A stretch of DNA of 64,000 nt, taken from Candidatus Poribacteria bacterium. Its GTDB lineage: Bacteria; Poribacteria; WGA-4E; WGA-3G. This document shows positions 2,138 through 55,100 of the stretch, in pieces (positions within the stretch are counted from its first letter, which is position 1; every line of letters begins with the position of its first letter). The notes below the pieces were generated by a model that searched no databases, was not told the DNA's origin, and saw only the letters and a program-made list of their open reading frames with translations. The DNA lies in the NCBI GenBank assembly GCA_964291315.2, contig OZ219753.1, positions 1,024,001 through 1,088,000 of the forward strand, written 5' to 3'. The translations under genes and the position numbers were made by a program.

Positions 2138-4993
2138 ATGCACGTAATGTTATGGAATAAAATTAGAATTTTCGTGGTTTTAGGGATCATGTTTGTCTTT
2201 GCAACCACACACACTTTTGGTATCTTTGGACCTGTAACTGGCACGGGTAACGATGCCTATCAGCAGTGGACTCAACTCAAGAAAGCCAAGGGCTTTTCGA
2301 TCATTATGAAGAGTTACGCTCTCATTGTTGCCACTCCTAAAGTTGACAGAAGTATTGGCGTTAACCAGCGTATAGCTAACGATGTACATGGGCAGGAAGT
2401 CGATGATTTGGCAGACCTGAAGGATTTACTGGTGCGCGGCGGCGCCATCACAATTTCAATGCGGGTGCCGACGGCAGCCGAAATTACCAGCGATGGCGCT
2501 GACAAGCATAGCCTGAAAGCCGATGCGTCAGCTGCGGATCTGATGAAGATGAAGCACCGTGTCGTCATCACCGAGGTGAATTGGGGGACGGATACCCCGC
2601 ACAGAACCGGTGCGCAATGGTTTGAACTCTATAACGCCGGCACTTTGAAATCCAAGGATTATATCAGATGGCGCACGCATGCCAGTTTAGACGCCGCCGC
2701 TGTCCCTGAACCGGGTAAGACGTTCATGTGGGACGATGACGGTAATGGGGAGCGCAAGTTTGTTGTTTTGGATCGTGTCGCCACGATCGATCGTTTTGGT
2801 AACCCGTGGGAGCTGAAAGGTGCGGATGGCGATACTGCCGATGGTGAGCCCGATGCTGATCCTTCTACCACTGAGATTGATCTACCTACCGATAGGGATA
2901 CCGGGGATCCTGACAATGCGATGACCTCCATGTATCGCAAGATCGATCTAGATGACACGGGTATGGCGTATAAAGTGGAAGGCGGAAAACTGAAAGGCCT
3001 CGGAGAAGGCAACGCAGCCAGCTCCTGGGAGGCGTCTAAATATAAGGGTAAGTATATCCTCTATGGCAATTACAAAGGGAGTCCCGGGGCAGTCCACTCG
3101 AAAAATCCGGGTGGCCCGGGTGCAGCCTTGTTTAATATGACCCCCGCCTCTATCTCTCACACAGGCATCATCATCAACGAGGTGCGAAACGACTCTTCAG
3201 ACGAGAACTTGGATTGGATAGAGCTGTTCTATAACAGTGATGATCCCGAAGCCAAGCCTGTGAATATAGAGAACTATAAGCTGAGCCTGGTGATGGGGAA
3301 GATGAAGTCTGATGGCAGCTATCACGAGTCGGGTGATGCCAACTTCACGGAGACCAAACTCGCTGTGCTGCCGAAATACGAGATGACACCGGGCGAGTAT
3401 GTAGTGGTCTATAACCGGGAGCCTGGGAAGAGTGTTACGTTTGCTGGCGGTGAAAAACTTCAGGATCTCTCTGCGAAAACGCACATCAAAAAGGGTGCCA
3501 CACACAAGTATGTGGTAGAGGCAGACCTGAAGCTGCCTGCTGAAGGCAAGTTCTTGATCCTGCTGCGCACGCGGAATAGTGCGGATGACGTTGGCAAGCC
3601 GTCAAATGTCAAAGATTATGCCGGCAACGGTTTCTTTAAGCGCATGGAAGATAAGAAGTTCGATACGAGTGTGTGGCCGTTTGTGGCGTGGTCTGCCCCG
3701 GGAGACGTTGAGGACTTCGGTAGCATGAACACCTTCGCCTCTACGAGTATGTCGTTCGGTCGGGGGGCCCAGTTGAGCTCGAAGGGCATGTATTGGGCGA
3801 AGTCTCGTGCGAACCGTGTTCACAAAGACGATTGGATGACGTTCGGTTTCATGGGTGCTGGCTACGATCGCGGGCGCGATAAAACGGTTGACACAGCGAG
3901 TGCCCCTGGCACGCCGGGGTATCCGAACATAGGGGTGAGTATGATCGCGGATGACAAAAACACCGCATCGACTGACGATGACTACGTCTTCGATGGGAAA
4001 GTGAGCATCAGCGAGATTATGTTTGATGCGGGGCCGCGCTCGAACTTGGCGCAGTGGATAGAGTTGTACAACAGCTCTATGACAGAGACGCTAGACCTTG
4101 CGGGCTGGGAGTTAGAGGTTCGCAATGAGCGGACAGAGATGGGTTCTTATGTCAATGCGAAGTTCACATTTGCTGCGGACACGTATCTGCCGCCGAATCA
4201 GACGTTGCTGCTGGTGTCGAACAATGGTGCGAACGATGTTGCGGAGAACTACGTCTATAACTTGCAGGAGAAGCACGGGACTGCTCTGGGTTTGACAGTG
4301 CGGGGTCGGCAGCTGCTGAGTGCGGCGGGCTTCCATCTGGAGCTTCGTGCGAAGGTCAACACAAGCGGTGACTCGGCGTTGATGGTAGTAGACACAGCTG
4401 GCAACCTTGAGATATCGGGGACGGTGCGCACCCACGCCTGGGATTTGCCCGAGCGCGGTGAGATGCGGATGTCTATCACCCGCACGTATAAAGGCGGTTC
4501 CAATCCGGATGATGGTTTGATGCAAGCCTCTTGGCGGCAGGCAAACCTAGCAGGTGCCTCGCTGACGTACTACGGACACCGGGACGATATCGGTTCCCCT
4601 GGCTACCGGGTCGGTGGTCCGTTGCCGGTTTCACTCTCGAGTTTCCGTCCTGTGCGCGATGCCTCGACGGGCCACGTTGAGATTACCTGGGTAACGCAGT
4701 CCGAGCTCAACAACGCGGGGTTCAATATCCTGCGCAGCGAAAGCAAGACGGGTGAGTTTGCGGTTATCAACACGAAGGGTCTGATTGCCGGACACGGCAC
4801 GACGTCCGAGAAGCATGTGTATCGCTACACAGATACCGCTGCGAAGCCGAACGTGGTGTATTACTACCAGATAGAAGACGTCTCTATGGACGGGGTGCGG
4901 ACGACGTTACGGACGACGCATCTGCGTGGGGATGTCTCTGCAAGTGGTAAGCTCACAACGCGGTGGGGAGAGCTGAAATCGTCTGACAAATAG
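2138..4993 (+). CDS. Secreted lamin-tail-domain (LTD) protein with LPVSLSSF Ig-like C-terminal domain and KLTTRWGELK tail, paralog A (start may be ATG 2147)
   Basis: Signal peptide; repeated I(T/N/S)E(V/I)...W(I/F)EL(Y/F)N and (S/T)PG motifs typical of LTD; GAGGAG RBS. Confidence 0.8.
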   Translation: MHVMLWNKIRIFVVLGIMFVFATTHTFGIFGPVTGTGNDAYQQWTQLKKAKGFSIIMKSYALIVATPKVDRSIGVNQRIANDVHGQEVDDLADLKDLLVRGGAITISMRVPTAAEITSDGADKHSLKADASAADLMKMKHRVVITEVNWGTDTPHRTGAQWFELYNAGTLKSKDYIRWRTHASLDAAAVPEPGKTFMWDDDGNGERKFVVLDRVATIDRFGNPWELKGADGDTADGEPDADPSTTEIDLPTDRDTGDPDNAMTSMYRKIDLDDTGMAYKVEGGKLKGLGEGNAASSWEASKYKGKYILYGNYKGSPGAVHSKNPGGPGAALFNMTPASISHTGIIINEVRNDSSDENLDWIELFYNSDDPEAKPVNIENYKLSLVMGKMKSDGSYHESGDANFTETKLAVLPKYEMTPGEYVVVYNREPGKSVTFAGGEKLQDLSAKTHIKKGATHKYVVEADLKLPAEGKFLILLRTRNSADDVGKPSNVKDYAGNGFFKRMEDKKFDTSVWPFVAWSAPGDVEDFGSMNTFASTSMSFGRGAQLSSKGMYWAKSRANRVHKDDWMTFGFMGAGYDRGRDKTVDTASAPGTPGYPNIGVSMIADDKNTASTDDDYVFDGKVSISEIMFDAGPRSNLAQWIELYNSSMTETLDLAGWELEVRNERTEMGSYVNAKFTFAADTYLPPNQTLLLVSNNGANDVAENYVYNLQEKHGTALGLTVRGRQLLSAAGFHLELRAKVNTSGDSALMVVDTAGNLEISGTVRTHAWDLPERGEMRMSITRTYKGGSNPDDGLMQASWRQANLAGASLTYYGHRDDIGSPGYRVGGPLPVSLSSFRPVRDASTGHVEITWVTQSELNNAGFNILRSESKTGEFAVINTKGLIAGHGTTSEKHVYRYTDTAAKPNVVYYYQIEDVSMDGVRTTLRTTHLRGDVSASGKLTTRWGELKSSDK

Positions 4994-26951: not shown

Positions 26952-29447
26952 ATGAGGGATTATCAACCGATTTCACTTTCTGCTTTGTGCAATGTCGGCC
27001 CAGAGATTATCGGGGAGAGAGCGACTCCGAATGTGGGGGCACGGACTCTTCACGGACTTCCTTTCGACATCGCTGAAGGGTCGCCCTGTTTCTTGGGTTT
27101 CGGTAAGGATGTTAACGCCGATCCTATCCGGGTTTCTATTAATGCCAGGCCGAGGCGGTTCATATTTGTCCATCGTTTGCTTGAAACGTATATTCCTGAG
27201 GGCGAGCCGATTGGTAGATTAATTGCGAATTATGTTTTCCATTACATTGACGGTGAAACTGTGAGTGTGCCGATTCGCGAGCGTTTCGAGATTGGTAGTG
27301 TTCCACAAGGTTGGGGGCAACAGACCTTTCTTGCTATTCCTGATTGTCAGGAAAATTTATTGCCTCGTTATGAAGGGGCGTGGGGAGCTGCGGGCAACCG
27401 GCAAACTGAGGTGAGCCAGGGCACGCCGCGCGACTACTATCTGTGGGTGTGGAAAAATTTGAGGGATGATGTTGATGTTGCGTCAATTGAAATTCAGCCG
27501 CAGGAGCGGTGTTTTATCGTTGCTGCGATCACGCTGGGTTACCTTGACGAGGATCCGATACCGCGTCGTGCGCGTCGTGAGGTCAAAATCACGCTTCTGC
27601 AGTCCGATGATGCGGGTAAACCTTTTGATATGGAAGTTAGCGTCGATCGTGGCGTTGCAACCTACCCGTATCCGTTGCCGGAGAGCACGTGCGATGCGTT
27701 TATCGAGGATAGTTTCAAAGGGTGGGGTGAATCTCAAAACACTAAGAGCAGCCCAGCGTATGTTGAAGTATCGGCTACCCCGTCTGCCACCGTTGAAGTC
27801 AAGAACCACGGTGAGACGCTCGGCAGCGTCAATTGGGGTACAGTCGAAGAAAAAGGGTCTCTTCAACCGAACAGACGCGTCAAAGTAGAGGTTATTGACT
27901 CCGGTAGAAACTGGGTGCACACTACTGTGATTGATGATGACACGAACAAGCCTGTACCGTGTCGGGTTCATTTTCGTTCTGCACACGGTGTGCCTTATGC
28001 TCCGCATGGGCACCATGCGCACGTCAACTCAAATAATGGCACATGGCATGTGGATGTGGGTGGTGATGTCCGTCTCGGACAGATTAGTTATGCATACATT
28101 GATGGCACATGCCAGGGATGGTTGCCGCGTGGGGACGTTATTGTCGATGTTGCCCGCGGGTTTGAATATACGCCGTTACGGACGACTGTTAACATAAGGC
28201 CTGGTCAACGCGATCTGACGTTGCGCATAAAGCGGTGGTGCGATATGAAAGCGGAACGTTATTTCAGCGGGGATACACATGTCCACTTTCTGTCTACTCA
28301 AGGTGCGCATACGGAGGCGCAAGGCGAGGATCTGGGTGTTGTGAATCTTCTGCTCTCACAGTGGGGGCATCTCTTCACAAATACAGAGGAATTCATTGGA
28401 GGCCCCACGGTTTCTGCTGATGGTCAAAGCATTGTGTATGCGACTCAGGAGAACCGCCAGCATGTTTTGGGGCATCTTACACTGCTGGGTTTAAAGCAGC
28501 AGGTTGCTCCGTGGTGTTCTGATGGTCCTGGGGAGGCGGAGTTGGGTGGGAATATGGAGACCACGCTTTCGCATTGGGCAGATGCTTGTCATGCACAAGG
28601 CGGTACGGTGGTGTTACCGCATATTCCGAACCCGAATTGCGAACCCGCGACGCTCATTGCCACTGGGCGTGTAGATGCTGTTGAGTATCTCACGAATGCT
28701 ATGTATGGACATACTGAGTACTACCGTTATCTCAACTGTGGCTATAAATTGCCGCTTGTTGGTGGAACGGATAAGATGAGCAGCGATGTGCCGGTAGGCG
28801 TTTATCGCACTTATGTGCATATCCCTGACAATGTGGAATTCAATTACGATAATTGGTGCAGATACATGAGTGCTGGCAACACGTTTCTGAGTGGTGGTCC
28901 GATGATCCGTCTCACAGTTGAAGGGCAGCCAATTGGTAGCACTATTAACCTGCCTGGTAACGGTGGCACAGTTGAGGTTGAAGCGTCTGCGGATTCTATT
29001 TTTCCGATCCACACGCTGCAAATTATTCAAGCGGGCGAGGTGGTTGCTTCCACTGGGGATGAGGCGGGCCAAGGGCGTTTACATCTCAAAGCGCGGTTGG
29101 AAGTGGACAAACACTCTTGGATTGCGGCGCGATGCGGTGGTCCGAACTATGCGCAAGCTGTTCCACATCACGATGGATGGGGCCGCGGTATTATTGCGCA
29201 CACTTCCCCGATCTACATCGCTGTTGGGGGCGAGTGGTGGATGTTTGATCCGGAAACGGCGAATTATATGCTGACTTTGATTGAAGGTGGCTTGTCGTAT
29301 ATTCAACAGACAGCGCGCCACTATGAACCTGGCACTGTGACACATCATCATGGGGAAGATGAGCATTTAGAATTCCTTTCGCGTCCATTCCAAGAGGCTC
29401 GTGCGGCGATTCACCGTAGGATGCACCAATTGGGTATTCCGCATTAA
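26952..29447 (+). CDS. CehA/McbA-like PHP-type metallohydrolase
   Basis: SGDTHVH, QENR, LPH, GGTD and AHTSPIY motifs. Confidence 0.7.
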   Translation: MRDYQPISLSALCNVGPEIIGERATPNVGARTLHGLPFDIAEGSPCFLGFGKDVNADPIRVSINARPRRFIFVHRLLETYIPEGEPIGRLIANYVFHYIDGETVSVPIRERFEIGSVPQGWGQQTFLAIPDCQENLLPRYEGAWGAAGNRQTEVSQGTPRDYYLWVWKNLRDDVDVASIEIQPQERCFIVAAITLGYLDEDPIPRRARREVKITLLQSDDAGKPFDMEVSVDRGVATYPYPLPESTCDAFIEDSFKGWGESQNTKSSPAYVEVSATPSATVEVKNHGETLGSVNWGTVEEKGSLQPNRRVKVEVIDSGRNWVHTTVIDDDTNKPVPCRVHFRSAHGVPYAPHGHHAHVNSNNGTWHVDVGGDVRLGQISYAYIDGTCQGWLPRGDVIVDVARGFEYTPLRTTVNIRPGQRDLTLRIKRWCDMKAERYFSGDTHVHFLSTQGAHTEAQGEDLGVVNLLLSQWGHLFTNTEEFIGGPTVSADGQSIVYATQENRQHVLGHLTLLGLKQQVAPWCSDGPGEAELGGNMETTLSHWADACHAQGGTVVLPHIPNPNCEPATLIATGRVDAVEYLTNAMYGHTEYYRYLNCGYKLPLVGGTDKMSSDVPVGVYRTYVHIPDNVEFNYDNWCRYMSAGNTFLSGGPMIRLTVEGQPIGSTINLPGNGGTVEVEASADSIFPIHTLQIIQAGEVVASTGDEAGQGRLHLKARLEVDKHSWIAARCGGPNYAQAVPHHDGWGRGIIAHTSPIYIAVGGEWWMFDPETANYMLTLIEGGLSYIQQTARHYEPGTVTHHHGEDEHLEFLSRPFQEARAAIHRRMHQLGIPH

Positions 29448-29639
29448 ATGCTACAGATTAAGTTTTATAGTGTTTATCGCTAGGCATGGCAATTATAATC
29501 TCGAAAATGTTATTACAGAGGGATTGGCTGCAAGGGCTTACCTATGTCGCTTCACACCGCCCGGGTTCAAAGGGGCTGTAGATTCGTCCTGCAGCTCAGT
29601 TGGTGTCCGCGCTGTAGGGGACGATGTCGACTTCTTTTT

Positions 29640-31986
29640 TCACACCGCCATCCCCGCCTCACGATACGTTCGTTGAATCAATGCCACCTCCGCATCTGTC
29701 AGCCCATACACCCGATACACCCACCGGTCTATCTCCCGCTCGATGTCGCGCACGTTATCGCTCTCTGGGGCTGCTAGTATCTGTTCAACGAGACATGATA
29801 CTTCTGCTTTCTGTGTATCAGTGCAATCTGCCATAGGAACCTTCTCCATATGTTGCGAAAAGAAAGACAAACCTCCGCCTGCCCACGGGTCGTTGAGACT
29901 CTGAAATTTATGGCGTGCATACCAGTCAAACAGTCTACTATTCAAAATAGCAAAGACAGAAAGATCGTTAATGGGTATGAAGTGTGTTGAGTCTAACCCG
30001 TATGCCCCAGTTGTATCATAAACTGCGTAAAGAGCCTTTGAAATCTTTGAGTACAAAATCTTCGGTTTTTCAAACTCTGCATGGTATGCGACAACGTCTT
30101 GGATCTCATACCACTTATAACTGCCCATTTTCCTCCCATATTTTTCGGCTCTACTTTTTTTCGGCTCCAAGTTTCTTCTATACTGATTCAGATGTTTCTT
30201 GACAGCCGGATACTGGTCAATCTCAACCCCGTGCCGTGTGAAGATGAGATATTGCCCTGTGCTATCCGTCCGCCACTTTCTAAGGTCTCGCCCTCTGAGC
30301 AAAGGCTTTATGAGCTCATTGCTCTTCGGATCCTCGGAGATCAGGCGCTGCCGCACAGCCGCATCGATGATAAATGCCTTGTTATATCCTGTCTTCACTC
30401 CCATATAAAAACCTTCCTTGACATATTCGCCGAGGGGTGTGCCGGTGGTTTCGAGTTTCCGCAGGAGCTGCAGTGTCTCGGGCGATGCCAAGGTCCAGCC
30501 CTCCGCTGATAAATCACGCGGCTGCAGCCGAAACGCCCGCTCCCGAAACGCCGCAGACAGCCGCAGCACATCAGACGCATCCCGAAACGTCGCCACCGAA
30601 AAAGGCGCTCCCTCTGATATAGCATTTTCAAGGATCAGGATACAGGTATCCACACTCGCTTTGAAGACAGCGACACTCCCGAAGTCAAGCAGCCGCTGAA
30701 TGCGTTGGGCATCGGAGAAAAATGCGCGCAGTTTTCTACCATACGCTGCCCGCAAAAACTTGTTTGAGGAGATATACGCCAAGATGCCGTGCCTCCGCAG
30801 CAGCTCCGTGCCGCGCTTGTAAAAATAGACGTAGAGGTCTGCGGTGCCGACATACACCTCTGGGAATAGCCGCTTGTAAGTCGGCTTCATCGCTTTGATA
30901 AGTTCTTGTCGCACATAAGGCGGGTTGCCAATCACAATGTCAAAGCCGCCCGCTTGAAAAACCTCCGGAAACTCCACCTGCCAGACAAACTCATCAGCAC
31001 TCGCTTGCCAGCCTTGAAGATCCGCTCGGAGTGCGGCGATCTCCGCTCGGAGTGCCTGTTTTTTCGCATCGACATGCGTAACGAGATAGTCCGCTTGTTT
31101 CTCTTGTATCTTTTGGATCCACGGCCTGTCAAGCGTCATCTGTTCCGGGGCTGCACCGGTCAGGCTGTCTCCCACCGCCACTTTGTAATCCAAGTTCGGC
31201 AGCGGCTGCGGCACATCGCCTTCATAGTCTACTGTGAGGCTCAGCCAGAGGCGCAACATCGCAATGTTGACAGCGAAGTCGTCTCTGTCCACGCCGTAAA
31301 GGTTCTTCCGGATAATCTCCAGCTTGCGTTCATACACCGTACGAGTATCGGTCTGATCGCTTTGGAACAGAGCATCGCGCAGGCGGAGCAGTTCGCCCAT
31401 CATCCCGAGTAGATACGCACCGCTCCCACACGCAGGATCACACACCCGTAAGTTCTGCAGCACCGCTAACACGCCCTCTGAATCGCGAATGCCCGTGGCA
31501 TCGCCACCGTCTACGAACTGTGTCAGGCACGCCGCGCTCTCCGTTGTCTGCTTCTGCAAGCAGAGCTTCAGGCTCTCCCTGCACATGAAAGAGACAACCG
31601 CACGCGGCGTGTAGTAGCTCCCACTGGCGTGCCGCCCCGTGACCAGTTCCTCAAACACCTTACCCAGCATCTCCGGGTCTACTGCAACCTCTATGTCTAG
31701 CGGCGTCGATTCGGTGATCGTGAAGTTATAACGTTCAAAGAGGTTGAGGATGTCAGCGAAGGTGTCGTTCGGCAGATCCACTGCGTGTTGTTCATCATAC
31801 GGCTGCATCTCGAAGAGTCCACCGTTGAGGAACGGCACATCGCCGCGCCGGGTGCGAGCGGCGGCATCTTCGGATCCGGACTCACCGGCGGGATTGCTGA
31901 GACCGTGGAAGAAGACGTAATAGAGCCGGTCGTTGAGCAAGCTCTCTGTGTGAGGCTCCTTGTGCTTATCAGAGATTACCCCCCCC
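29640..31986 (-). CDS. C-terminal part (gamma-class m6A MTase plus TRD) of type IIG-like protein, copy 1, in the +1 frame
   Basis: FLNGGLF, GSYYTP, DPACGSGA (motif I), GNPPY (motif IV) and TaqI-C-like TRD. Confidence 0.85.
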
Positions 31987-32847
31987 GCTTCTTGTCGATT
32001 CCGCACTGCCAGACGACGATTCTATACCCACCGCCGCCTCATACAACGCACGGAAGTAGTCCCGACGACCCGCATACCGCAACCAACCTTTTCTCTCAAG
32101 AAAACGCAGAAACATCAAACGATTCAACAGACGCTGCGTATACAACCGACGCTCATCCGCCTCGCTCTTTGGGATCCCTGACAGTGCCGCCTCCACTAAT
32201 TCGAAGACGCTCTTATACTCACGGAAAAACTGATCCGTCACAGCCGCCACATCAAACGCACGCTGCCATTTAGCAACCCACGCTTGCGACGACGAAAAAC
32301 CGCCACGCGGAAACGCCAGAGCCGGCAGGTTGTATTCACACAGCGTCCGAAGGTGCGTATCCCCACGATCCCACGAGAATATAGACAGCACCGCATCCTG
32401 CCAAGACGCACCCGCACCTGCGAAGTGGGCAAACGCAAACCGATGAAAATCAGCAGTCGTGCAGATGAATAGCAGATGATCCAGCTCCCACGCAGGCAGC
32501 CGTGCGTCTCGGGCGCGCCTTTCAACCAGACCCCGCAGAACCCGCCGCAACTCCGTGCGATACACCCGCTCACTGCTGAATTCAACAAAGAAGATGCCCC
32601 ACGGCTGCGAGCCGACCTCGGGAGAAAATCCCAACGCCTCGCGCGCGAACGGCGGCAGCTGCAGACAGTCAGCGACTCGTGCCTCAGCCGTTTCATCAAG
32701 ATCCAGCTCTGCTGACGACCACGGGAAAGCTATCTCGCCGAGCGTCACGTCTTCGGGGATCGGCCAGTCGAGAGTGTCACGAAAGAACGCTAAGAGCGTC
32801 TCAAAGTCAGTTATAGTATCAACAGTTTCAACGGGTATATATGACAT
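31969..32847 (-). CDS. N-terminal part of type IIG (Eco57I/TaqI-like) R-M protein, copy 1; ends just after the G8 tract
   Basis: VAAVTDQFFREYK and QRLLNRLMFLRFLERKGWL helical region typical of these proteins; ends SGGGNL*. Confidence 0.75.
   Translation of the reverse strand: MSYIPVETVDTITDFETLLAFFRDTLDWPIPEDVTLGEIAFPWSSAELDLDETAEARVADCLQLPPFAREALGFSPEVGSQPWGIFFVEFSSERVYRTELRRVLRGLVERRARDARLPAWELDHLLFICTTADFHRFAFAHFAGAGASWQDAVLSIFSWDRGDTHLRTLCEYNLPALAFPRGGFSSSQAWVAKWQRAFDVAAVTDQFFREYKSVFELVEAALSGIPKSEADERRLYTQRLLNRLMFLRFLERKGWLRYAGRRDYFRALYEAAVGIESSSGSAESTRSGGGNL
31979..31986 (-). repeat. G8 homopolymer at the frame junction (candidate phase-variation tract)
   Basis: AGC GGG GGG GGT AAT CTC TGA TAA; G7 or G10 fuses the two ORFs. 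Confidence 0.8.
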
Positions 32848-32938
32848 TGGTATTCCTCAAGGGTTAGGCGATAAGTAAACGGATAACGGACATCTTGGAA
32901 AATAGACCCGACCAACGAGACGGGTGCTTCACTCTCCT

Positions 32939-32967
32939 AATATAGCACGCACCGCTTGTTTTGTCAA
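32939..32967 (-). promoter_or_regulatory. sigma-70 promoter of cassette 1
   Basis: TTGACA-17nt-TATATT with extended TG. Confidence 0.75.
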
Positions 32968-33064
32968 ATGTAGCACAACAGGCGTACCGGGTGTAGAACA
33001 TTAATCTTTAGTATGTACGCAAAACGTTACTTCGAATCACGAGGCATCTACAGTACCTATCAAT

Positions 33065-33093
33065 TTGACACGCCTTCCCCTTTGTGATAAAAT
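33065..33093 (+). promoter_or_regulatory. sigma-70 promoter of lpdA
   Basis: TTGACA-17nt-TAAAAT. Confidence 0.65.
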
Positions 33094-33122
33094 TAAATTC
33101 ATCTCAAAAGATAGGAGCAGTT

Positions 33123-34511
33123 ATGTCTACATACGATGTCATAATTATCGGCGGCGGGCCGGGCGGATACGTTGCAGCCATCAAAGCTGCACAACTCGGT
33201 GGAACGGTCTGCCTGATAGAAAAAGGGGCGTGGGGCGGAACTTGTCTGAACCGAGGGTGTATTCCAACAAAAACCCTTTTTGCTGTTGCGAATCTCGCTA
33301 CACAGATGCAGCAAGCTTCTGCTTTCGGTGTACATATCAACGGGGAGACGACAATTGATTATACGCAAGTGTTGAACCACAAAACCACTGTTGTCCAACA
33401 GTTAGAACGGGGCATCGCGCAATTATTGAAGGCGAACGTGGTCGATGTCCGTAACGGAACAGCCGAGCTTATCGATAAAAATACGATCATTGTCAACAAG
33501 CCTGATGGTGCAACTGAACAGTTGCACACGAAAAATGTTATTATTGCGACAGGTTCAGAACCCGCGAAACCACCGCTCTTTGAGATCGATGAGAACCAAG
33601 TTTTGACGACAACAGGCATTCTCAATCTTACAGAGCTTCCTGAAAGCCTGCTAATCGTTGGCGGCGGTGTATCCGGATGCGAATTTGCTTCTATCTTCAA
33701 TGCCCTCGGGTGCCGAGTGACAATAGTGGAACTTCTCCCTACCATTTTGGTGTCCGAAGATATTCAAGTTATCCGACACATTCAGCACTTCATGAAGCGC
33801 AAAGGCATCACGATCCATACCGGTGTGAAACTTACCGGTGTCAAAAAAACAGGCACACAGGTAACAGCTGTGCTTAACTCCGGCGAAGAGATCACTGCAG
33901 AAAAAATGCTTGTTTCAATCGGCAGGCGCTACAATACAGATAGGGTAGGTTTAGAAAAAGTTGGTATTCGCACCAATGGCGGGAAAATCGTTGTGGATGC
34001 ACAGATGCGCACGAACGTTTTCAATATTTATTCGGTCGGAGATGTGGCCAGCCGTTATCTGTTGGCACACGTGGCATCGGCAGAAGGGAAAGTCGCCGCA
34101 CAAAACTGCCTTGGTGCCGGCGTTGAGATGGATTATCAGGTCATTCCATGGTGTGTTTTCACCTTACCCGAAATTGGACACGTCGGAATGACAGAAGAAG
34201 AAGCAACACTTGAAGGGTATGAAGTAAAAATCGGTCGATTCCCTTACGCAGCGAACGCAAAAGCGTTAGGACTACGTCAAACAGATGGATTTGTCAAAAC
34301 TGTCTCTGATGCCGATAGCGGCGATATTCTCGGCATTCACATCGTCGGCGCGCACGCGTCAACACTTATTCATGAAGCCGCCGTCGCCCTCCGATTGGGA
34401 GCAACAGCAAGCGACATTGCACAGACTGTTCATGCACATCCTACCCTTTCAGAAATGATCATGGAATCCGCCGAAGCCGTGATGGGCAAGGCAATTCACA
34501 GTGTGCGTTAA
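33123..34511 (+). CDS. lpdA: Dihydrolipoyl dehydrogenase
   Basis: GGGPGGY, GGTCLNRGCIPTK and HAHPTLSE; start at the ATG after AGGAG. Confidence 0.92.
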   Translation: MSTYDVIIIGGGPGGYVAAIKAAQLGGTVCLIEKGAWGGTCLNRGCIPTKTLFAVANLATQMQQASAFGVHINGETTIDYTQVLNHKTTVVQQLERGIAQLLKANVVDVRNGTAELIDKNTIIVNKPDGATEQLHTKNVIIATGSEPAKPPLFEIDENQVLTTTGILNLTELPESLLIVGGGVSGCEFASIFNALGCRVTIVELLPTILVSEDIQVIRHIQHFMKRKGITIHTGVKLTGVKKTGTQVTAVLNSGEEITAEKMLVSIGRRYNTDRVGLEKVGIRTNGGKIVVDAQMRTNVFNIYSVGDVASRYLLAHVASAEGKVAAQNCLGAGVEMDYQVIPWCVFTLPEIGHVGMTEEEATLEGYEVKIGRFPYAANAKALGLRQTDGFVKTVSDADSGDILGIHIVGAHASTLIHEAAVALRLGATASDIAQTVHAHPTLSEMIMESAEAVMGKAIHSVR

Positions 34512-35413
34512 AAACGGACAGCTTCTTGGAGTTCATCATAGCGCGCCAAAATTTCAGAAAACCGAACGCGCTTTTGTCTGTCAACGCTGAAATCTTCAAT
34601 ATTAAAAGAGGCAAGAACCGTGCCGTAAATCATTGCACTGCGTACCGCCTTCTCAGAAGTATCGTCAACCGATGCAAGATACCCCATCATGCCCCCCGCA
34701 AAACTATCTCCTGCCCCTGTAGGATCTGTTACCTGTGTGAGTGGATACGCAGGCGCACTAAAGAAGGACGACTCTGTGACGCTGATAGCACCATGCTCCC
34801 CCTTTTTAATGATAACCCTTTTTGGACCATAACGTAGAATCTCTCGGGCCGCCCGCATCAAATTGGAATCACCGGTGAACAAGCGCGCCTCACTGTCATT
34901 TAAAATGAGAACATCTACACGTCTTAAGAGGGCTTCTAATGCCTCCCGCTCCTCATTAATCCAAAAATCCATCGTATCGCAAACAATGAACTTCGAATCC
35001 TTCGCTTGTTCAATGATGCTCAATTGTAGCAGCGGGGAATTATTCGCTAAAAAAAGATACGGAGTCTCCCTATAAGTTTCAGGTAAAACAGGCTGGAAAT
35101 CCCTAACAACATTTAATTCTGTGAAAAGTGTATCTCGTACGTTAAAATCTGCGGCATAACGCCCGCCCCATCGAAACGATTTGCCAGAATCAATCTGCTT
35201 TAGACCTTGGAGATCGATGCCTTGAGTCTCAAGGAACTCTGTGTACGCACCCGGGAAATCAGCACCGATAACACCAACAAGCTGCACAGCGTTCTTAAAA
35301 AAATTCGCCGCGACAGCGGCGTACACGCCAGAACCACCTAGTACATCTTCAACGCGTGTACTCGGGGTCTCCACCGTATCTAAAGTAACTGTTCCAACGA
35401 CCAAAACTCCCAT
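34508..35413 (-). CDS. PfkB family sugar/nucleoside kinase
   Basis: LGGSG and DPTGAGDSFAGG. Confidence 0.88.
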   Translation of the reverse strand: MGVLVVGTVTLDTVETPSTRVEDVLGGSGVYAAVAANFFKNAVQLVGVIGADFPGAYTEFLETQGIDLQGLKQIDSGKSFRWGGRYAADFNVRDTLFTELNVVRDFQPVLPETYRETPYLFLANNSPLLQLSIIEQAKDSKFIVCDTMDFWINEEREALEALLRRVDVLILNDSEARLFTGDSNLMRAAREILRYGPKRVIIKKGEHGAISVTESSFFSAPAYPLTQVTDPTGAGDSFAGGMMGYLASVDDTSEKAVRSAMIYGTVLASFNIEDFSVDRQKRVRFSEILARYDELQEAVRF

Positions 35414-35466
35414 ACCTTAAGTTTCTGTTTCCCCAAATATATAGGCGCAAATTCCTGTTTTTAAAA

Positions 35467-35712
35467 TCAGAAAGGCCCCGGCCTATTTTTATTTTCGCGT
35501 AATGCATGCATAACCCGTCGCAAACGCCGAACAACGATTACACCAAGTACAACAACTATCGGATACTGCAAGATACCCAAGACCTTTAACAACGACGCAG
35601 GCAAAGGCAACGCTATTTTCTGAGAGGATGCCATGATTGGAAATAAAAGGACCGCGGATACAAGCAGTATAATCCATTCCCAAATCTCTGATTTTTTCAT
35701 AAGCCACCCCAT
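35467..35712 (-). CDS. Small two-TM hypothetical protein
   Basis: Two hydrophobic helices, within the ahcY-pfkB gene run. Confidence 0.5.
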   Translation of the reverse strand: MGWLMKKSEIWEWIILLVSAVLLFPIMASSQKIALPLPASLLKVLGILQYPIVVVLGVIVVRRLRRVMHALRENKNRPGPF

Positions 35713-37038: not shown

Positions 37039-38166
37039 CTACCGGAGTTTTTCGATGTAATCGGTTTCTTCCCAAGTAAAACCAGGGGCTTCGCGCCCGA
37101 AATGCCCGTAGGCAGCTGTGTTTTGATAGATAGGCCGACGCAACTTCAACCGTTCAATAATACCGATTGGCGTTAAATCAAAATGGGTGTTAACAAGTTT
37201 TGTAAGGGCTTCATCATCACCTGTCCCGAAGGTATCTACCATGACAGAAATGGGGTCCGCTCTCCCGATTGCATAAGAAATTTGGATCTCACAACGTTCC
37301 GCACGCCCAGCTGCAACGATGTTTTTAGCAACATGCCGAGCTGCATAAGTCGCACTTCGATCTACTTTAGTTGGATCCTTCCCAGAAAGTGCCCCACCAC
37401 CATGTCGTCCCATGCCCCCATACGTATCAGCAATAATCTTTCGCCCGGTTAATCCGGCATCCCCTTGCGGACCTCCGGTTACAAAGCGTCCTGTTGGATT
37501 AATATGATATTTAATATCTGGACTTCGGAGATTTTCAGGTATAACTTTTTTGATTACCTCTTCGATAATTGATTCCCGGAGGCGAGTATCCACGTCGACA
37601 TCCGGATCATGTTGTGAGGAGATAACAACTGTCGTAACAGCCTTAGGTTCATTATCGGCATATTCAACTGTCACTTGAGATTTCCCATCAGGCCGAATAA
37701 AGGGAAGGATACCGTCCTTCCGAACTTCTGCCAAGCGCCTCGTTAATTGATGCGCAAGAGTAATCGGCAACGGCATTAATTCTGGCGTTTCGGTGCAAGC
37801 GTATCCAAACATCAAACCTTGGTCGCCCGCACCGCCTAGGTCCACCCCCAGCGCAATATCAGGCGATTGTTTATCAATGATGCTCAAGACAGCGCTTCGG
37901 TCAGCGTCAAAACCGTATTCAATATGAGTGTACCCGATATCGGTAAGTACGCGCCGTGCAATTTGCTTATCGTCGTAGTTTGTAGTTGTAGTGATCTCGC
38001 CAGCGATAACAACAAGCCCTGTTGTGACCAAAGTCTCACAGCCGACTCTACCCATAGGGTCGGTTGCTAGTATAGCATCAAGCACCGCGTCGGAGATCTG
38101 GTCTGCGACTTTGTCCGGATGTCCCTCAGTGACAGACTCGGACGTAAATAGAAAATTTTTGCTCAA
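37039..38166 (-). CDS. metK: S-adenosylmethionine synthetase
   Basis: [19 protein letters not shown] and [11 protein letters not shown]; start reassigned to the TTG after GGAG. Confidence 0.95.
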
Positions 38167-38405
38167 TTCCGGGGCTCCCAGTTTATATATGTATCTCTCA
38201 ACCGTATCATAATTGCTAAACTTTAGGTGTAAGAGATGAAGAGTGGATCCCAAGACCCACTCTTACACATAAATGTAGAAAACGGACAGACTTAACCTCC
38301 ACGTCTACACTTAAATGTCAACATCTCTGTAGCAAGGTTTTCTTCTAGGCACCTGTTTCCACACCGAAAGCGTGAATCTGGTCCGGGCAGAAGATACAAG
38401 GGACG

Positions 38406-51745: not shown

Positions 51746-54119
51746 TCACACCGCCATCCCCGCCTCACGATACGTCTGCTCAATCAACGCGATCTCCGCA
51801 TCCGTTAGCTCATACACCCGATACACCCGCTCATCTATCTCCCGCTCGATCTCCTGCACGCCCTCGCTCTCTGGATCTGCCAATATCTGCTCGACGAGCC
51901 GCGACAGCTCCACTTTCTGTGCATCAGTCCGATCTGCTATTGGGGTACGGCGCATATACTGAGACTTGAAACGCAAACCGCCACCCATCCACGGGTCGTT
52001 GAGGCTCTGAAATTTATGACGTGCATACCAATCAAGCAGTGTGCTGTTTAAGATAGCAAGCAAGGAGAGATCATAGGTCGGTATGAAGTATGTTGTGTCT
52101 AACCCAAATGAGTTCGTTGTATCATAGCAAGCGCGCATAAATGGATTAATATCCGCATAAACAATCTTCGGTTTTTCGAACTCGGCATAGTAGGCACACG
52201 ATCGAAGTTCCCAATAAAATTTACCCTGAGCATCCCTTTTAGTCAAACGTTCGCGATAACCATGCAGATGTTGATAGATTGCAGGATAAGTTCTTCGAAA
52301 AACCTGTTCTGCTTCTGAGGTGCTTTTTACATCTGACCAGGGCCACTCTCTATTCGCACTGCTCTCTATCACTATTAGGTATTCATTTGCCGGTATTGCC
52401 TTCCATTTCTGAAGATTGCGCCCTCTGAGCAAAGGTTTTATCAGTTCCCGGCTCTTTGGATCCCCGGAAATCAGTTGCTGACGCATAGACTCATCGATGA
52501 TAAATGCATCATTGCGTCCAGTTATCACACCTATGTAAAGATCACCTTTTACATATTTTTCTAACAACGTACCAGTCTGTTGAAGTTTTCCAAGTAGTCG
52601 CAGCGCGTCGGGGGATGTCAATGTCCAGCTCTCCGTTGATAAATCACGCGGATGCAGCCGAAACGCCCGATCCCGAAACGCCGCAGACAGCCGCGGCACA
52701 TCAGACGCATCCCGAAACGTCGCCACCGAAACAGGCTCTCCATCTGATGTGGCATTTTCAAGGATCAGGATACAGGTATCCACACTCGCTTTGAAGACAG
52801 CGACACTCCCAAAGTCAAGCAATCTGTGGAGCCGTTGGGCATCGGTAAAGAAAGACCGTAGTTTCCTGCCATACGCCGCCCGCAAAAACTTGTTTGAGGA
52901 GATATACGCCAAGATGCCGTGCCTACGCAGCAGCTCCGTGCCGCGCTTGTAAAAATAGACGTAGAGGTCTGCTCTCCCCACATAGACTTCTGGAAACAAG
53001 CGTGCCAAAGTCGGCTTCATCGGTCCGATAAGTTGATCTCTCACATAAGGCGGGTTGCCGATCACAACATCAAAACCGCCGGCTTGAAAAACCTCCGGAA
53101 ACTCAACCTGCCAGACAAACGCCTCCTCCGGGGCATCTTGCCAGCCTTGAAGATCCGCTCGGAGTGCGGCGATCTCCGCTCGGAGTGCCTCTTTCTTTGC
53201 GTCCCCGTGTGTGATGAAATAGTCCGCTTGTTTCTCCTGTATCGCTTGGATCAACGGCCTTTCAAGCGTCAGCTGTTCCGGGGCTGCACCGGTCAGGCTG
53301 TCCCCCACCGCCACTTTGTAATCCAAGTTCGGCAGCGGCTGCGGCACGTCGCCTTCATAGTCTACTGTGAGGCTCAGCCACAGGCGCAACATCGCAATGT
53401 TGACAGCGAAGTCGTCTCTGTCCACGCCGTAAAGGTTCCGCTGAATAATATCCAGCTTGCGTTCATACACCGTGCCGGGATCGGTCTGATCGCTTTGGAA
53501 GAGAGCATCGCGCAGGCGAAGCAGTTCGCCCATCATCCCGAGTAGATACGCACCGCTCCCACACGCAGGATCACACACCCGTAAGTTCTGCAGCACCGCT
53601 AACACACCTTCTGAATCGCGGATCCCCGCGGCATCGCCTCTGTCAACAAACTGTGTCAGGCACGCCGCGCTCTCCGTTGTCTGCGTCTCGAGGCAGAGCT
53701 TCAGGCTCTCCCGACACATGAAGGAGACAACCGCACGCGGCGTGTAGTAGCTCCCACTGGCGTGCCGCCCCGTGACCAGTTCCTCAAACACCTTACCCAG
53801 CATCTCCGGGTCTACTGCAACCTCTATGTCTAGCGGCGTGGACTCGGTGATCGTGAAGTTATAACGTTCGAAGAGGTTGAGGATGTCGGCAAAGGTGTCG
53901 TTCGGGAGATGCACTGCGTTTCGTTCGTCATACGGCTGCATCTCGAAGAGGCCACCGTTGAGGAACGGCACATCGCCGCGCCGGGTGCGAGCGGCGGCAT
54001 CTTCGGATCCGGACTCACCGGCGGGATTGCTGAGACCGTGGAAGAAGACGTAATAGAGCCGGTCGTTGAGCAAGCTCTCTGTCCGAGGCTCCTTGTGCTT
54101 ATCAGAGATTACCCCCCCC
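51746..54119 (-). CDS. C-terminal part (m6A MTase plus TRD) of type IIG-like protein, copy 2, in the +1 frame
   Basis: DPACGSGA and GNPPY; TRD differs from copy 1. Confidence 0.85.
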
Positions 54120-54980
54120 GCTTCTTATAGATTCCGCACTGCCAGAGAGAGTCTCGATGCCCATTGCAGCCTCATACAACGCACGCAAGTAGTCCCGGCG
54201 ACCCGCATACCGCAACCAACCCTTTCTCTCAAGAAAACGCAGAAACATCAAACGATTCAACAGACGCTGCGTATACAACCGACGAGCCTCCACAGCGCTC
54301 TCCGGGATCCCTGACAGCGAGGCCTCCACCAACGCAAAGACGCTCTTATACTCACGGAAAAACTGATCCGTCACAGCCGCCACATCAAACGCACGCTGCC
54401 ATTTAGCAACCCACGCTTGCGACGACGAAAAACCGCCACGCGGAAACGCCAGAGCCGGCAGGTTGTATTCACACAGCGTCCGAAGGTGCGTATCCCCACG
54501 ATCCCACGAGAATATAGACAGCACCGCATCCTGCCAAGACGCACCCGCACCTGCGAAGTGGGCAAACGCAAACCGATGAAAATCAGCAGTCGTGCAGATG
54601 AATAGCAGATGATCCGGCTCCCACGCAGGCAACCGTGCGTCTCGGGTGCGCCTCTCCACCAGACCTCGCAGAACCCGCCGCAACTCCGTGCGATACACCC
54701 GCTCACTGCTGAATTCAACAAAGAAGATGCCCCACGGCTGCGAGCCGACCTCGGGAGAAAATCCCAACGCCTCGCGCGCGAACGGCGGCAGCTGCAGACA
54801 GTCAGCGACTCGTGCCTCAGCCGTTTCATCAAGCTCCAGCTCTGATGACGACCACGGGAAAGCTATCTCGCCGAGCGTCACGTCTTCGGGGATCGGCCAG
54901 TCGAGAGTGTCACGAAAAAACGCTAAGAGCGTCTCAAAGTCAGTTATAGTATCAACAGTTTCAACGGGTATATATGACAT
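54102..54980 (-). CDS. N-terminal part of type IIG-like R-M protein, copy 2
   Basis: 292 aa, nearly identical to 31969..32847, ends SGGGNL*. Confidence 0.75.
   Translation of the reverse strand: MSYIPVETVDTITDFETLLAFFRDTLDWPIPEDVTLGEIAFPWSSSELELDETAEARVADCLQLPPFAREALGFSPEVGSQPWGIFFVEFSSERVYRTELRRVLRGLVERRTRDARLPAWEPDHLLFICTTADFHRFAFAHFAGAGASWQDAVLSIFSWDRGDTHLRTLCEYNLPALAFPRGGFSSSQAWVAKWQRAFDVAAVTDQFFREYKSVFALVEASLSGIPESAVEARRLYTQRLLNRLMFLRFLERKGWLRYAGRRDYLRALYEAAMGIETLSGSAESIRSGGGNL
54112..54119 (-). repeat. G8 homopolymer at the frame junction, copy 2
   Basis: Same GAAGC-G8-TAATCTCTGATAA context as copy 1. Confidence 0.8.
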
Positions 54981-55071: not shown

Positions 55072-55100
55072 AATATAGCACGCACCGCTTGTTTTGTCAA
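55072..55100 (-). promoter_or_regulatory. sigma-70 promoter of cassette 2
   Basis: Identical TTGACA-17nt-TATATT. Confidence 0.75.

Follow-up and report, generated by a model that had tools for sequence, protein, structure and literature searches.

Two methyltransferase genes are each split by a run of G residues

Is a gene whose two halves meet out of frame at a run of G residues broken, misread, or switched? The question was raised by two DNA methyltransferase (MTase) genes in a 64,000-nucleotide stretch of a Candidatus Poribacteria genome, referred to here as the window (C4:1024001-1088000 of the assembly G000, which has 4,396,821 bases in 4 contigs). An original prediction, made from the letters of the window, had taken the two genes for a phase-variable methylation system. 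Our analysis made it likely that each of them is a contingency locus, that is, a single type IIG-like N6-adenine DNA MTase gene of ~1070 codons that is switched by slipped-strand changes of its G tract.

Re-reading of the sequence bore out the predicted layout of both genes. They are on the minus strand, and the C8 seen on the plus strand at 31979..31986 (copy 1) and 54112..54119 (copy 2) is G8 on the coding strand, where both copies read AGC GGG GGG GGT AAT CTC TGA TAA. The N-terminal open reading frames (ORFs) of copy 1 (31969..32847), with a conserved domain and a helical region, and of copy 2 (54102..54980) encode 292 aa each and share the C-terminal end RSGGGNL*, the stop lying two codons past the tract. 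The half with the MTase and specificity domains is read in the +1 frame (..GGVISDKHKEP..). It spans 29640..32006 in copy 1, where the ORF is listed from a GTG at 32006 and homology starts at the tract, and 51746..54124 in copy 2, where the frame is open from just past a TAA and the first listed start is TTG 54073. That TAA closes the +1 frame of copy 2 at 8 nt upstream of the tract. The tract and its flanks form what we call the switch cassette, acaagaagc-G8-taatctctgataagcacaa at 31960..31995 in copy 1 and tataagaagc-G8-taatctctgataagcacaa at 54093..54128 in copy 2, with stops right after the copy 1 tract in both non-productive frames. A tract of G9 runs immediately into TAA and G8 into TGA TAA two codons on, and the halves are in frame at G7 or G10 only. 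At G7 the fused product is 1068 aa for copy 1 and 1077 aa for copy 2, composed of 287 aa to the AGC codon, two Gly residues, and 779 or 788 aa from Val; these residue counts equaled the predicted lengths. Both copies are out of frame in the consensus, as had been claimed. The two copies were 98% identical over 1.2 kb around the tract and 94.5% identical in the N-terminal ORF (tblastn), and only 62% identical in the specificity part, which is the target-recognition domain.

The MTase halves were assigned by domain searches. Both matched Pfam Eco57I (1.8e-41 and 9.4e-40) together with MmeI_Mtase, N6_Mtase, and TaqI_C, and the TaqI_C target-recognition matches (1.4e-12 and 7.5e-9) were in the same chain as the MTase. 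PADLOC type IIG models matched the MTase half up to 2.7e-118 and reached the C-terminus of the model, and motif I DPACGSG and NPPY were kept in all 8 genomic copies of the gene. Type IIG enzymes are one polypeptide; here the domains are split by the tract in 8/8 copies, and in most homologues elsewhere they are joined. BREX PglX and DISARM DrmMI were considered as other identities and rejected, in that the NCBIfam BREX-2 PglX model scored 98 bits against a cut-off of 400, the PADLOC scores of both were far weaker than those of the type IIG models, and the neighbors are housekeeping genes.

The N-terminal half matched no Pfam or NCBIfam family. Its AF2 model (pLDDT 84, pTM 0.72) comprised a mixed alpha/beta domain (residues 1-190) followed by helices (199-278), with the tail at the tract being disordered, and the linker at the tract was modeled with a pLDDT of 25-32. 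Searches against the PDB returned nothing by Foldseek at E<=0.001, no sequence or profile match, and no VIA-align hit of Z >=8, the best one (Z 5.9) covering the helical part 199-246 only. Among 38 sequences aligned over residues 1-200, no Lys was conserved and no D...ExK was present among the conserved residues. A language-model search gave a weak match to MmeI_N (0.86).

Homologues are mostly continuous at the position of the tract

The N-terminal half had 587 longer homologues, and nearly all of the 120 matches listed were proteins of ~1040-1070 aa in which the N-half, Eco57I, and TaqI_C are joined. The copy 1 N-half shared 63% identity with the N-terminal end of fused proteins that are ~1050 aa long. 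In the first 40 listed proteins of at least 1000 aa, the junction was a short variable linker (..DATEASETD joined to ENFLNDRL..), at which the window copies have an extra ~20-27 aa containing the Gly run. The closest genomes were Candidatus Poribacteria metagenome-assembled genomes with ~61% identity, which fitted the suggestion of an environmental or symbiotic lineage. At the 13 Candidatus Poribacteria loci examined, there was no G or C run of 6 or longer in the 4 kb from the match start, a distance that covers the gene, and the open frames reached 1093 aa. Within the genus, 4 of 18 genomes had one continuous copy each.

The Gly run was found in other assemblies as well, where many N-halves of 283-317 aa ended just past ..TSMISGGGG, ..TTYVTSGGG, or ..NHLISGGGG. 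Of 141 listed homologues with a recognizable linker, 120 were continuous without a Gly run, 4 carried it in frame, and 17 stopped within 45 aa after it, one of the 17 being the cluster of this genome itself. One in-frame protein (P0139) and one stopped protein (P0141) shared 91% identity, with no difference in the 44 residues that precede the run. The expectation that homologues should be continuous and lack the linker was thus mostly correct for Candidatus Poribacteria, with some homologues carrying the tract in frame and others cut at it. As a separate observation at the protein level only, P0029, P0033, and about ten other homologues had 1-4 tandem copies of a 16-aa unit (..NTPLIRGDEGGLEP..) at the linker instead of the Gly run.

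Twenty-eight methyltransferase genes are split in the same genome

The original prediction, though largely right in its interpretation, was limited to two genes, and this scope proved too narrow, since the system consists of 8 copies of the window gene and 20 other split MTase genes. Long G tracts are more frequent in this genome than expected by chance. G runs of length 5, 6, and 7 numbered 1567, 253, and 29, and C runs 1541, 257, and 18, a 6- to 14-fold drop per added base. After this steep fall the counts were flat at length 8 (23 G and 22 C runs, 45 in all), with 18 further runs of 9 and 2 of 10. We scored a run as splitting a gene when two long ORFs in different frames met at it. This was the case for 22 of the 45 G/C runs of 8 and 6 of the 18 runs of 9, compared with 0/47 G/C runs of 7 and 5/510 of 6. 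The A/T runs served as a further control, with 5/985 splits at length 7, 2/320 at length 8, and 0/60 at length 9 (7/1365 in total). Control homopolymers seldom split ORFs, and the assembly is therefore not generally frameshifted at homopolymers.

All 28 split tracts fell in MTase genes, which we grouped into five families. The window gene is the Eco57I/MmeI-type, type IIG-like family A, for which tblastn found 8 genomic copies, all of which have G8 at one and the same site, where the N-half meets the catalytic domain. In the other 20 genes, G8 or G9 lay exactly at the meeting of the two ORFs. Family B (5 copies) and family E (2 copies, G8/G9) are type III Mod (PF12564 / PF01555) with the tract after the PF12564 part. 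Family C (6 copies) is a PF01555 (N6_N4) methyltransferase with the cassette in the opposite orientation to the gene, and family D (7 copies, 2xG8 and 5xG9) is a second MmeI/Eco57I-like family with the tract inside the catalytic region. In total there were 22 G8 and 6 G9 tracts; none of the 28 was in frame, and all would require G7 or G10. Most of the 103 fused type III Mod homologues examined had a short linker, and two carried in-frame forms (..GGVICDK.. and ..GGGICDN..). We also observed three type III mod genes, each split by G8, within 8 kb at L081 (G000 C1:316000-327000), two of them in direct tandem. No long res-like ORF is among the ORFs listed for these 11 kb; the rest of the genome was not searched for res.

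Both halves of the window gene are maintained

Both halves of the window gene are intact and under purifying selection. For the 28 pairs among the 8 copies, dN/dS was 0.29 in the N-half and 0.32 in the MTase half, the latter being 0.19 over the first 480 codons and 0.40 in the specificity part. Both halves were intact over ~3.2 kb in 7 of the 8 copies. The sixth copy (G000 C4:2332188-2334520), the sole one damaged beyond the tract, has a second frame break in its specificity part, and the tblastn match shifts frame after residue 650.

Sequence divergence was concentrated in the specificity part. Among the 8 copies the catalytic core was 90-97% identical and the specificity part 51-92%, with the alignment minimum of 53% at positions 600-650. 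In families B, D, and E, a conserved 5' module ends with the tract, and the variable part follows ~150-180 nt further on. The two G8 copies were not sisters in a tree of family D (7 copies), and tract length has therefore changed at least twice in this family. Local homogenization of ~90 nt around the tract was considered for family D and rejected, as the whole 5' module is conserved and the sequence is variable only from ~150 nt downstream.

Tract length varies between samples and between relatives

Four sequencing runs of one study (X1-X4) contain the stretch as contigs, which were compared over window positions 28500-35500, all paralogues and strains being pooled in the summed depth. At 31979 the contigs of all four runs had G8 as their main form, as in the window. 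X1, X3, and X4 each had one contig that was shorter by one base (G7, which would be an ON length), at ~0.6-1.3 x single-copy depth. The depth of this contig was 603.5 in X1 (summed depth 32478, single-copy flanks ~930-1070), 5119 in X3 (109832, flanks ~4000-4300), and 12.5 in X4 (93.4, flanks ~15.5); in X2 the G7 form was absent at 31979 (summed depth 223250). The agreement of the four runs shows that G8 did not arise as an assembly error, and that a G7 form exists in the samples. The contigs of three runs were also one base shorter at window position 29636, in an A/T run just past the copy 1 stop codon; this form is most likely a paralogue because the main single-copy X1 contig agreed with the window, and other paralogues differ there.

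We further examined a congener (G003, 590 contigs), whose genome is also rich in long G runs. The sample comprised 34 loci with 39 runs, and Pfam was run on 4 of the proteins at tracts. Nine runs of G8/G9 were located at the meeting of two ORFs of at least 441 nt in different frames. Three runs were in frame, all of them G10, in a type III Mod of 664 aa, a Type ISP protein of 1236 aa, and an Eco57I-like protein of 567 aa. The Type ISP protein (loci L157 and L151) contains helicase, coupler, methyltransferase, and Type_ISP_C domains, with the cassette inside the C-terminal specificity domain, and one locus of its family has G10 and is in frame, and two others have G8 and are split. Further pairs with the same flanks differed by G9 versus G8. 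ON and OFF alleles thus both occur in nature, with 4 in-frame versus 17 cut forms among the listed homologues and 3 G10 versus 9 G8/G9 in the congener, and none is ON in the genome of the window. The predicted variation in tract length was supported in part, by the G7 minority in 3 of 4 runs, the G8 and G9 paralogues, and G10 in the congener; switching of the two window genes themselves is still a prediction, in that the G7 form is not tied to either copy.

Unrelated methyltransferase genes share one putative switch cassette

The five families have a common flank motif, AAGC-Gn-TAATCtNtGATAAG, which is in reverse orientation in family C, and the cassette consensus over the five families was AAGC-Gn-TAATCtNtGATAAGcAcA. 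The mean identity of family consensuses was 0.73 from -6 to +15 and 0.29 outside, and of the first 16-18 bases that follow the tract, 15-17 agreed among families A, B, and C. The positions of the tract in the proteins are non-homologous between families. With this motif, one frame meets TAA immediately past the run and another meets TGA TAA two codons on, and several families also have stops just before the run in other frames. The cassette of family C is reversed relative to its gene, and the cassette would therefore act at the DNA level. The exact cassette pattern occurred 24 times in G000 and in 0/30 relatives. It had no match in a viral contig collection and one in a metagenome contig collection, which on reading was a chance match with G6. 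In G003, unrelated families also share flanks, with another consensus, ACTTAACATA[AG][AG]T-Gn-TAAAT, which encodes the peptide LLNI[SYD]GGGVN.

A tentative explanation, which we regard as possible though with less than even confidence, is that the cassette is a mobile phase-variation module. Insertion or gene conversion would have placed copies of a portable, species-specific element of ~35 nt (core AAGC-Gn-TAATCtNtGATAAGcaca here and ACTTAACATAAGT-Gn-TAAAT in the congener) in permissive linkers of restriction-modification (R-M) MTase genes that are not homologous (type IIG-like, type III Mod, Type ISP, and N6_N4), in either orientation, and the element would also occur at intergenic sites next to surface-protein genes. 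If this were true, one symbiont genome of 4.4 Mb would hold some 28 independently switchable MTases and ~20 further switches. An internal promoter with the tract as its spacer was also considered and is not claimed; the spacing fits families D, F, and G and does not fit family A or the large non-coding class described below, and scans gave no strong site at the tract.

Probable phase variation and its alternatives

The gene that emerges would encode an N-terminal domain followed by a catalytic domain of the Eco57I/MmeI type and then a TaqI_C-like specificity domain, with a hypermutable G tract in a disordered linker. Slipped-strand mispairing at replication would alter the length of the tract, such that G7 or G10 would yield one fused protein (ON), and G8 or G9 would stop translation at TAA or TGA-TAA (OFF). 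The window copies would then be part of 8 paralogues with different specificity domains, within 28 cassette-bearing MTase genes, and single cells could therefore differ in the MTases that they express, for phage defense or epigenetic variation. We favor phase variation because of the frame logic, the intact and constrained halves, the differences in tract length between same-flank copies, the G7 minority, the in-frame relatives, and the indifference of the cassette to orientation. Switching at the two window copies, its rate, and the action of the ON protein are what we infer from these patterns.

Several results weigh against this reading. None of the 28 copies is in frame here, well below the one third expected from random phases. 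Plain slippage does not account for all 28 being off, or for a flank motif shared across families, as flanks are unneeded for slippage. No longer form (G9/G10) was listed at 31979 in the four runs, and the G7 contig is not assignable to one copy; its source could be a co-occurring strain or, with lower probability, read errors in the homopolymer. Moreover, neither a nuclease fold nor a catalytic PD-(D/E)xK motif was found in the N-half. The predicted label of type IIG-like is thus supported for the MTase and specificity part, and a nuclease activity of the N-half is only putative. The uniform OFF state could plausibly reflect off-biased resting lengths, G8/G9 lying between ON G7 and G10, together with the cost of expressing new MTases.

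The same uniformity could be read as programmed recoding, with G8/G9 as the normal state and full-length protein made via RNA polymerase slippage or a ribosomal shift of +1 (G8) or -1 (G9), the flanks acting as stimulators. Such recoding would agree with ORFs that stay intact and under purifying selection while 28/28 are out of frame, with a flank motif kept across unrelated genes at 0.73 in the core versus 0.29 outside, and with the resemblance of G-run-UAAU-CUC-UGA to the prfB site. A programmed frameshift has a fixed site and direction, whereas G8 and G9 within one family would need opposite shifts, and the reversed cassette of family C leaves no common RNA-level stimulator. In-frame G10 alleles in G003, in-frame forms among homologues, and the lack of any unusual tRNA-Gly or tRNA-Pro also speak against recoding, which we consider unlikely. 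Quadruplet GGGG decoding by a suppressor tRNA was rejected on a whole-genome ARAGORN search, in which the three tRNA-Gly (tcc, gcc, ccc) and three tRNA-Pro were all ordinary and no aberrant tRNA was present. That the genes are a silenced reserve or are decaying, the tract being merely the easiest route of inactivation and the copies off for good or being lost, is similarly improbable. The count of 0/28 in frame, the copy with a second break in its specificity part (G000 C4 2332208), and the 0-1 copies of the window family in same-genus relatives would be expected of such genes; yet 7/8 copies are intact in both halves with dN/dS ~0.3, the break always occurs at the same tract and never elsewhere, and in-frame lengths exist in relatives.

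Two further alternatives concern the split itself. The halves could be made as two proteins, the MTase half starting at GTG 32006 or TTG 31940/54073. Separate N-halves of 283-317 aa are indeed common as predicted proteins in other assemblies, and an AAGGAG is present upstream of the TTG. However, those short N-half proteins have out-of-frame tails just past the Gly run, the AAGGAG is 15 nt from the TTG, the GTG frame of copy 2 is closed by the TAA, and in families B, D, and E the cut made by the tract is inside the catalytic domain or immediately precedes it. A promoter-like site (TTGACA-17-TATATT) was found ~92 nt upstream of the N-half ATG in each copy, at 32939..32967 in copy 1 (minus strand, with TG before it and the ATG at 32847) and at 55072..55100 in copy 2 (minus strand), where its sequence is identical to the copy 1 site in the alignment; both are consensus matches only, at 11/12 positions. 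Promoter scans of both copies showed no strong promoter-like site near the tract, which is a further point against separate expression, and a two-protein system is in our judgment very unlikely. A homopolymer miscall, with an assembly that under-calls a tract whose real length is in frame, had been raised as an alternative with the original prediction. It would explain why every copy needs the same class of correction (G7 or G10), and the 4-contig assembly is probably long-read based. It was contradicted by the contigs of four runs, which give G8 as the main form, by other homopolymers, as A/T and G7 runs almost never split ORFs, by the presence of both G8 and G9 within one family, and by the 590-contig same-genus assembly, which has the same G8/G9 splits beside in-frame G10. 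A miscall is hardly credible on this evidence. Slipped-strand phase variation thus remains the reading that we prefer.

Non-coding G tracts and neighboring genes

At ~20 G000 loci, such as L085:1656-1664 (C4:2059155) and L086:1781-1788 (C4:1446780), a G8-G10 tract was located in a conserved non-coding element of ~300 nt with the layout ..ACTTACTGTGTGTGAAGT..-Gn-TAATCGCTAAAAAGC..AACAGCAG..CTTAGGCGATA. The element had 0 Rfam matches at E<=0.1 for the 4 loci searched. On its C-strand side, genes start 37-470 nt off, and these encode proteins with Laminin_G_3 (x2) or FGE-sulfatase domains (x2), a TonB-dependent receptor, a TonB_C protein, and DUF4007. The non-coding elements may be promoter or leader switches for surface proteins. 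Within the window, metK (S-adenosylmethionine synthetase, 37039-38253, minus strand) sits between the two MTase copies, which is probably a coincidence. The other neighbors of both copies are housekeeping genes (S1 protein, pyridine nucleotide-disulphide oxidoreductase), and none of the neighboring ORFs inspected was alaS.

Significance and comparison with known systems

To our knowledge, phase-variable MTases are known almost only from host-adapted pathogens, with one or a few genes per genome. The 28 genes look like an uncommonly large collection of switches by which DNA methylation is turned on and off reversibly. With so many genes, in five families and with diversified specificity domains, a natural population of this uncultured lineage, a relative of sponge symbionts, could take on very many methylation states. 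This bears on symbiont defense in phage-rich sponge tissue and on how 'pseudogenes' and split MTases in metagenome-assembled genomes are read. A flank motif that is common to unrelated genes and differs between two species of one genus also raises the question of whether the hypermutable switch itself spreads between genes. The literature searched, with supplementary files outside its scope, contained no poly-G or phase-variable MTases in Poribacteria or sponge symbionts, and described neither a flank motif shared between unrelated genes nor a switch spreading between genes.

The closest single-gene parallel is cj0031 of Campylobacter jejuni, a type IIG R-M enzyme switched by poly-G in a genus for which tracts of G7-G13 are typical. 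It is, like the window gene, a large single-chain Eco57I/MmeI-type enzyme whose frame is set by the length of the G run (PMC6321876). Unlike cj0031, the window gene belongs to 8 paralogues with differing specificity domains in an uncultured relative of Candidatus Poribacteria, its tract is located in a lineage-specific linker insert with flanks shared with other families, and its N-half is only a putative nuclease. In phasevarions, type III mod genes are switched by simple repeats in Haemophilus, Neisseria, and Helicobacter; the concept is that of PMC7383803 and PMC5149525. Families B and E are similarly type III Mod genes, in which the tract separates the N-terminal part from the catalytic domain and a variable specificity region lies further downstream; here, in contrast to phasevarions, one genome has 7 mod copies, three of them close together.

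The cassette itself can be compared with two other kinds of element. The programmed +1 frameshift site of prfB reads AGGGGG-UAU-CUU-UGA. Both it and the cassette have a G-rich run a few bases before CUN-UGA, with the product continued in +1, whereas the tract here varies in length (G8/G9/G10), the cassette also occurs reversed, and in-frame alleles exist. Rickettsia palindromic elements are repeat elements inserted in frame into coding genes. Like them, the cassette is a short DNA element in unrelated genes at permissive sites, in either orientation and also intergenic; unlike them, its core is only ~35 nt and not palindromic. Its hypermutable run would moreover give it a switching function. 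Overall, the kind of system is a known one, and what is new is how many switches there are, the lineage in which they occur, and the cassette that they share.

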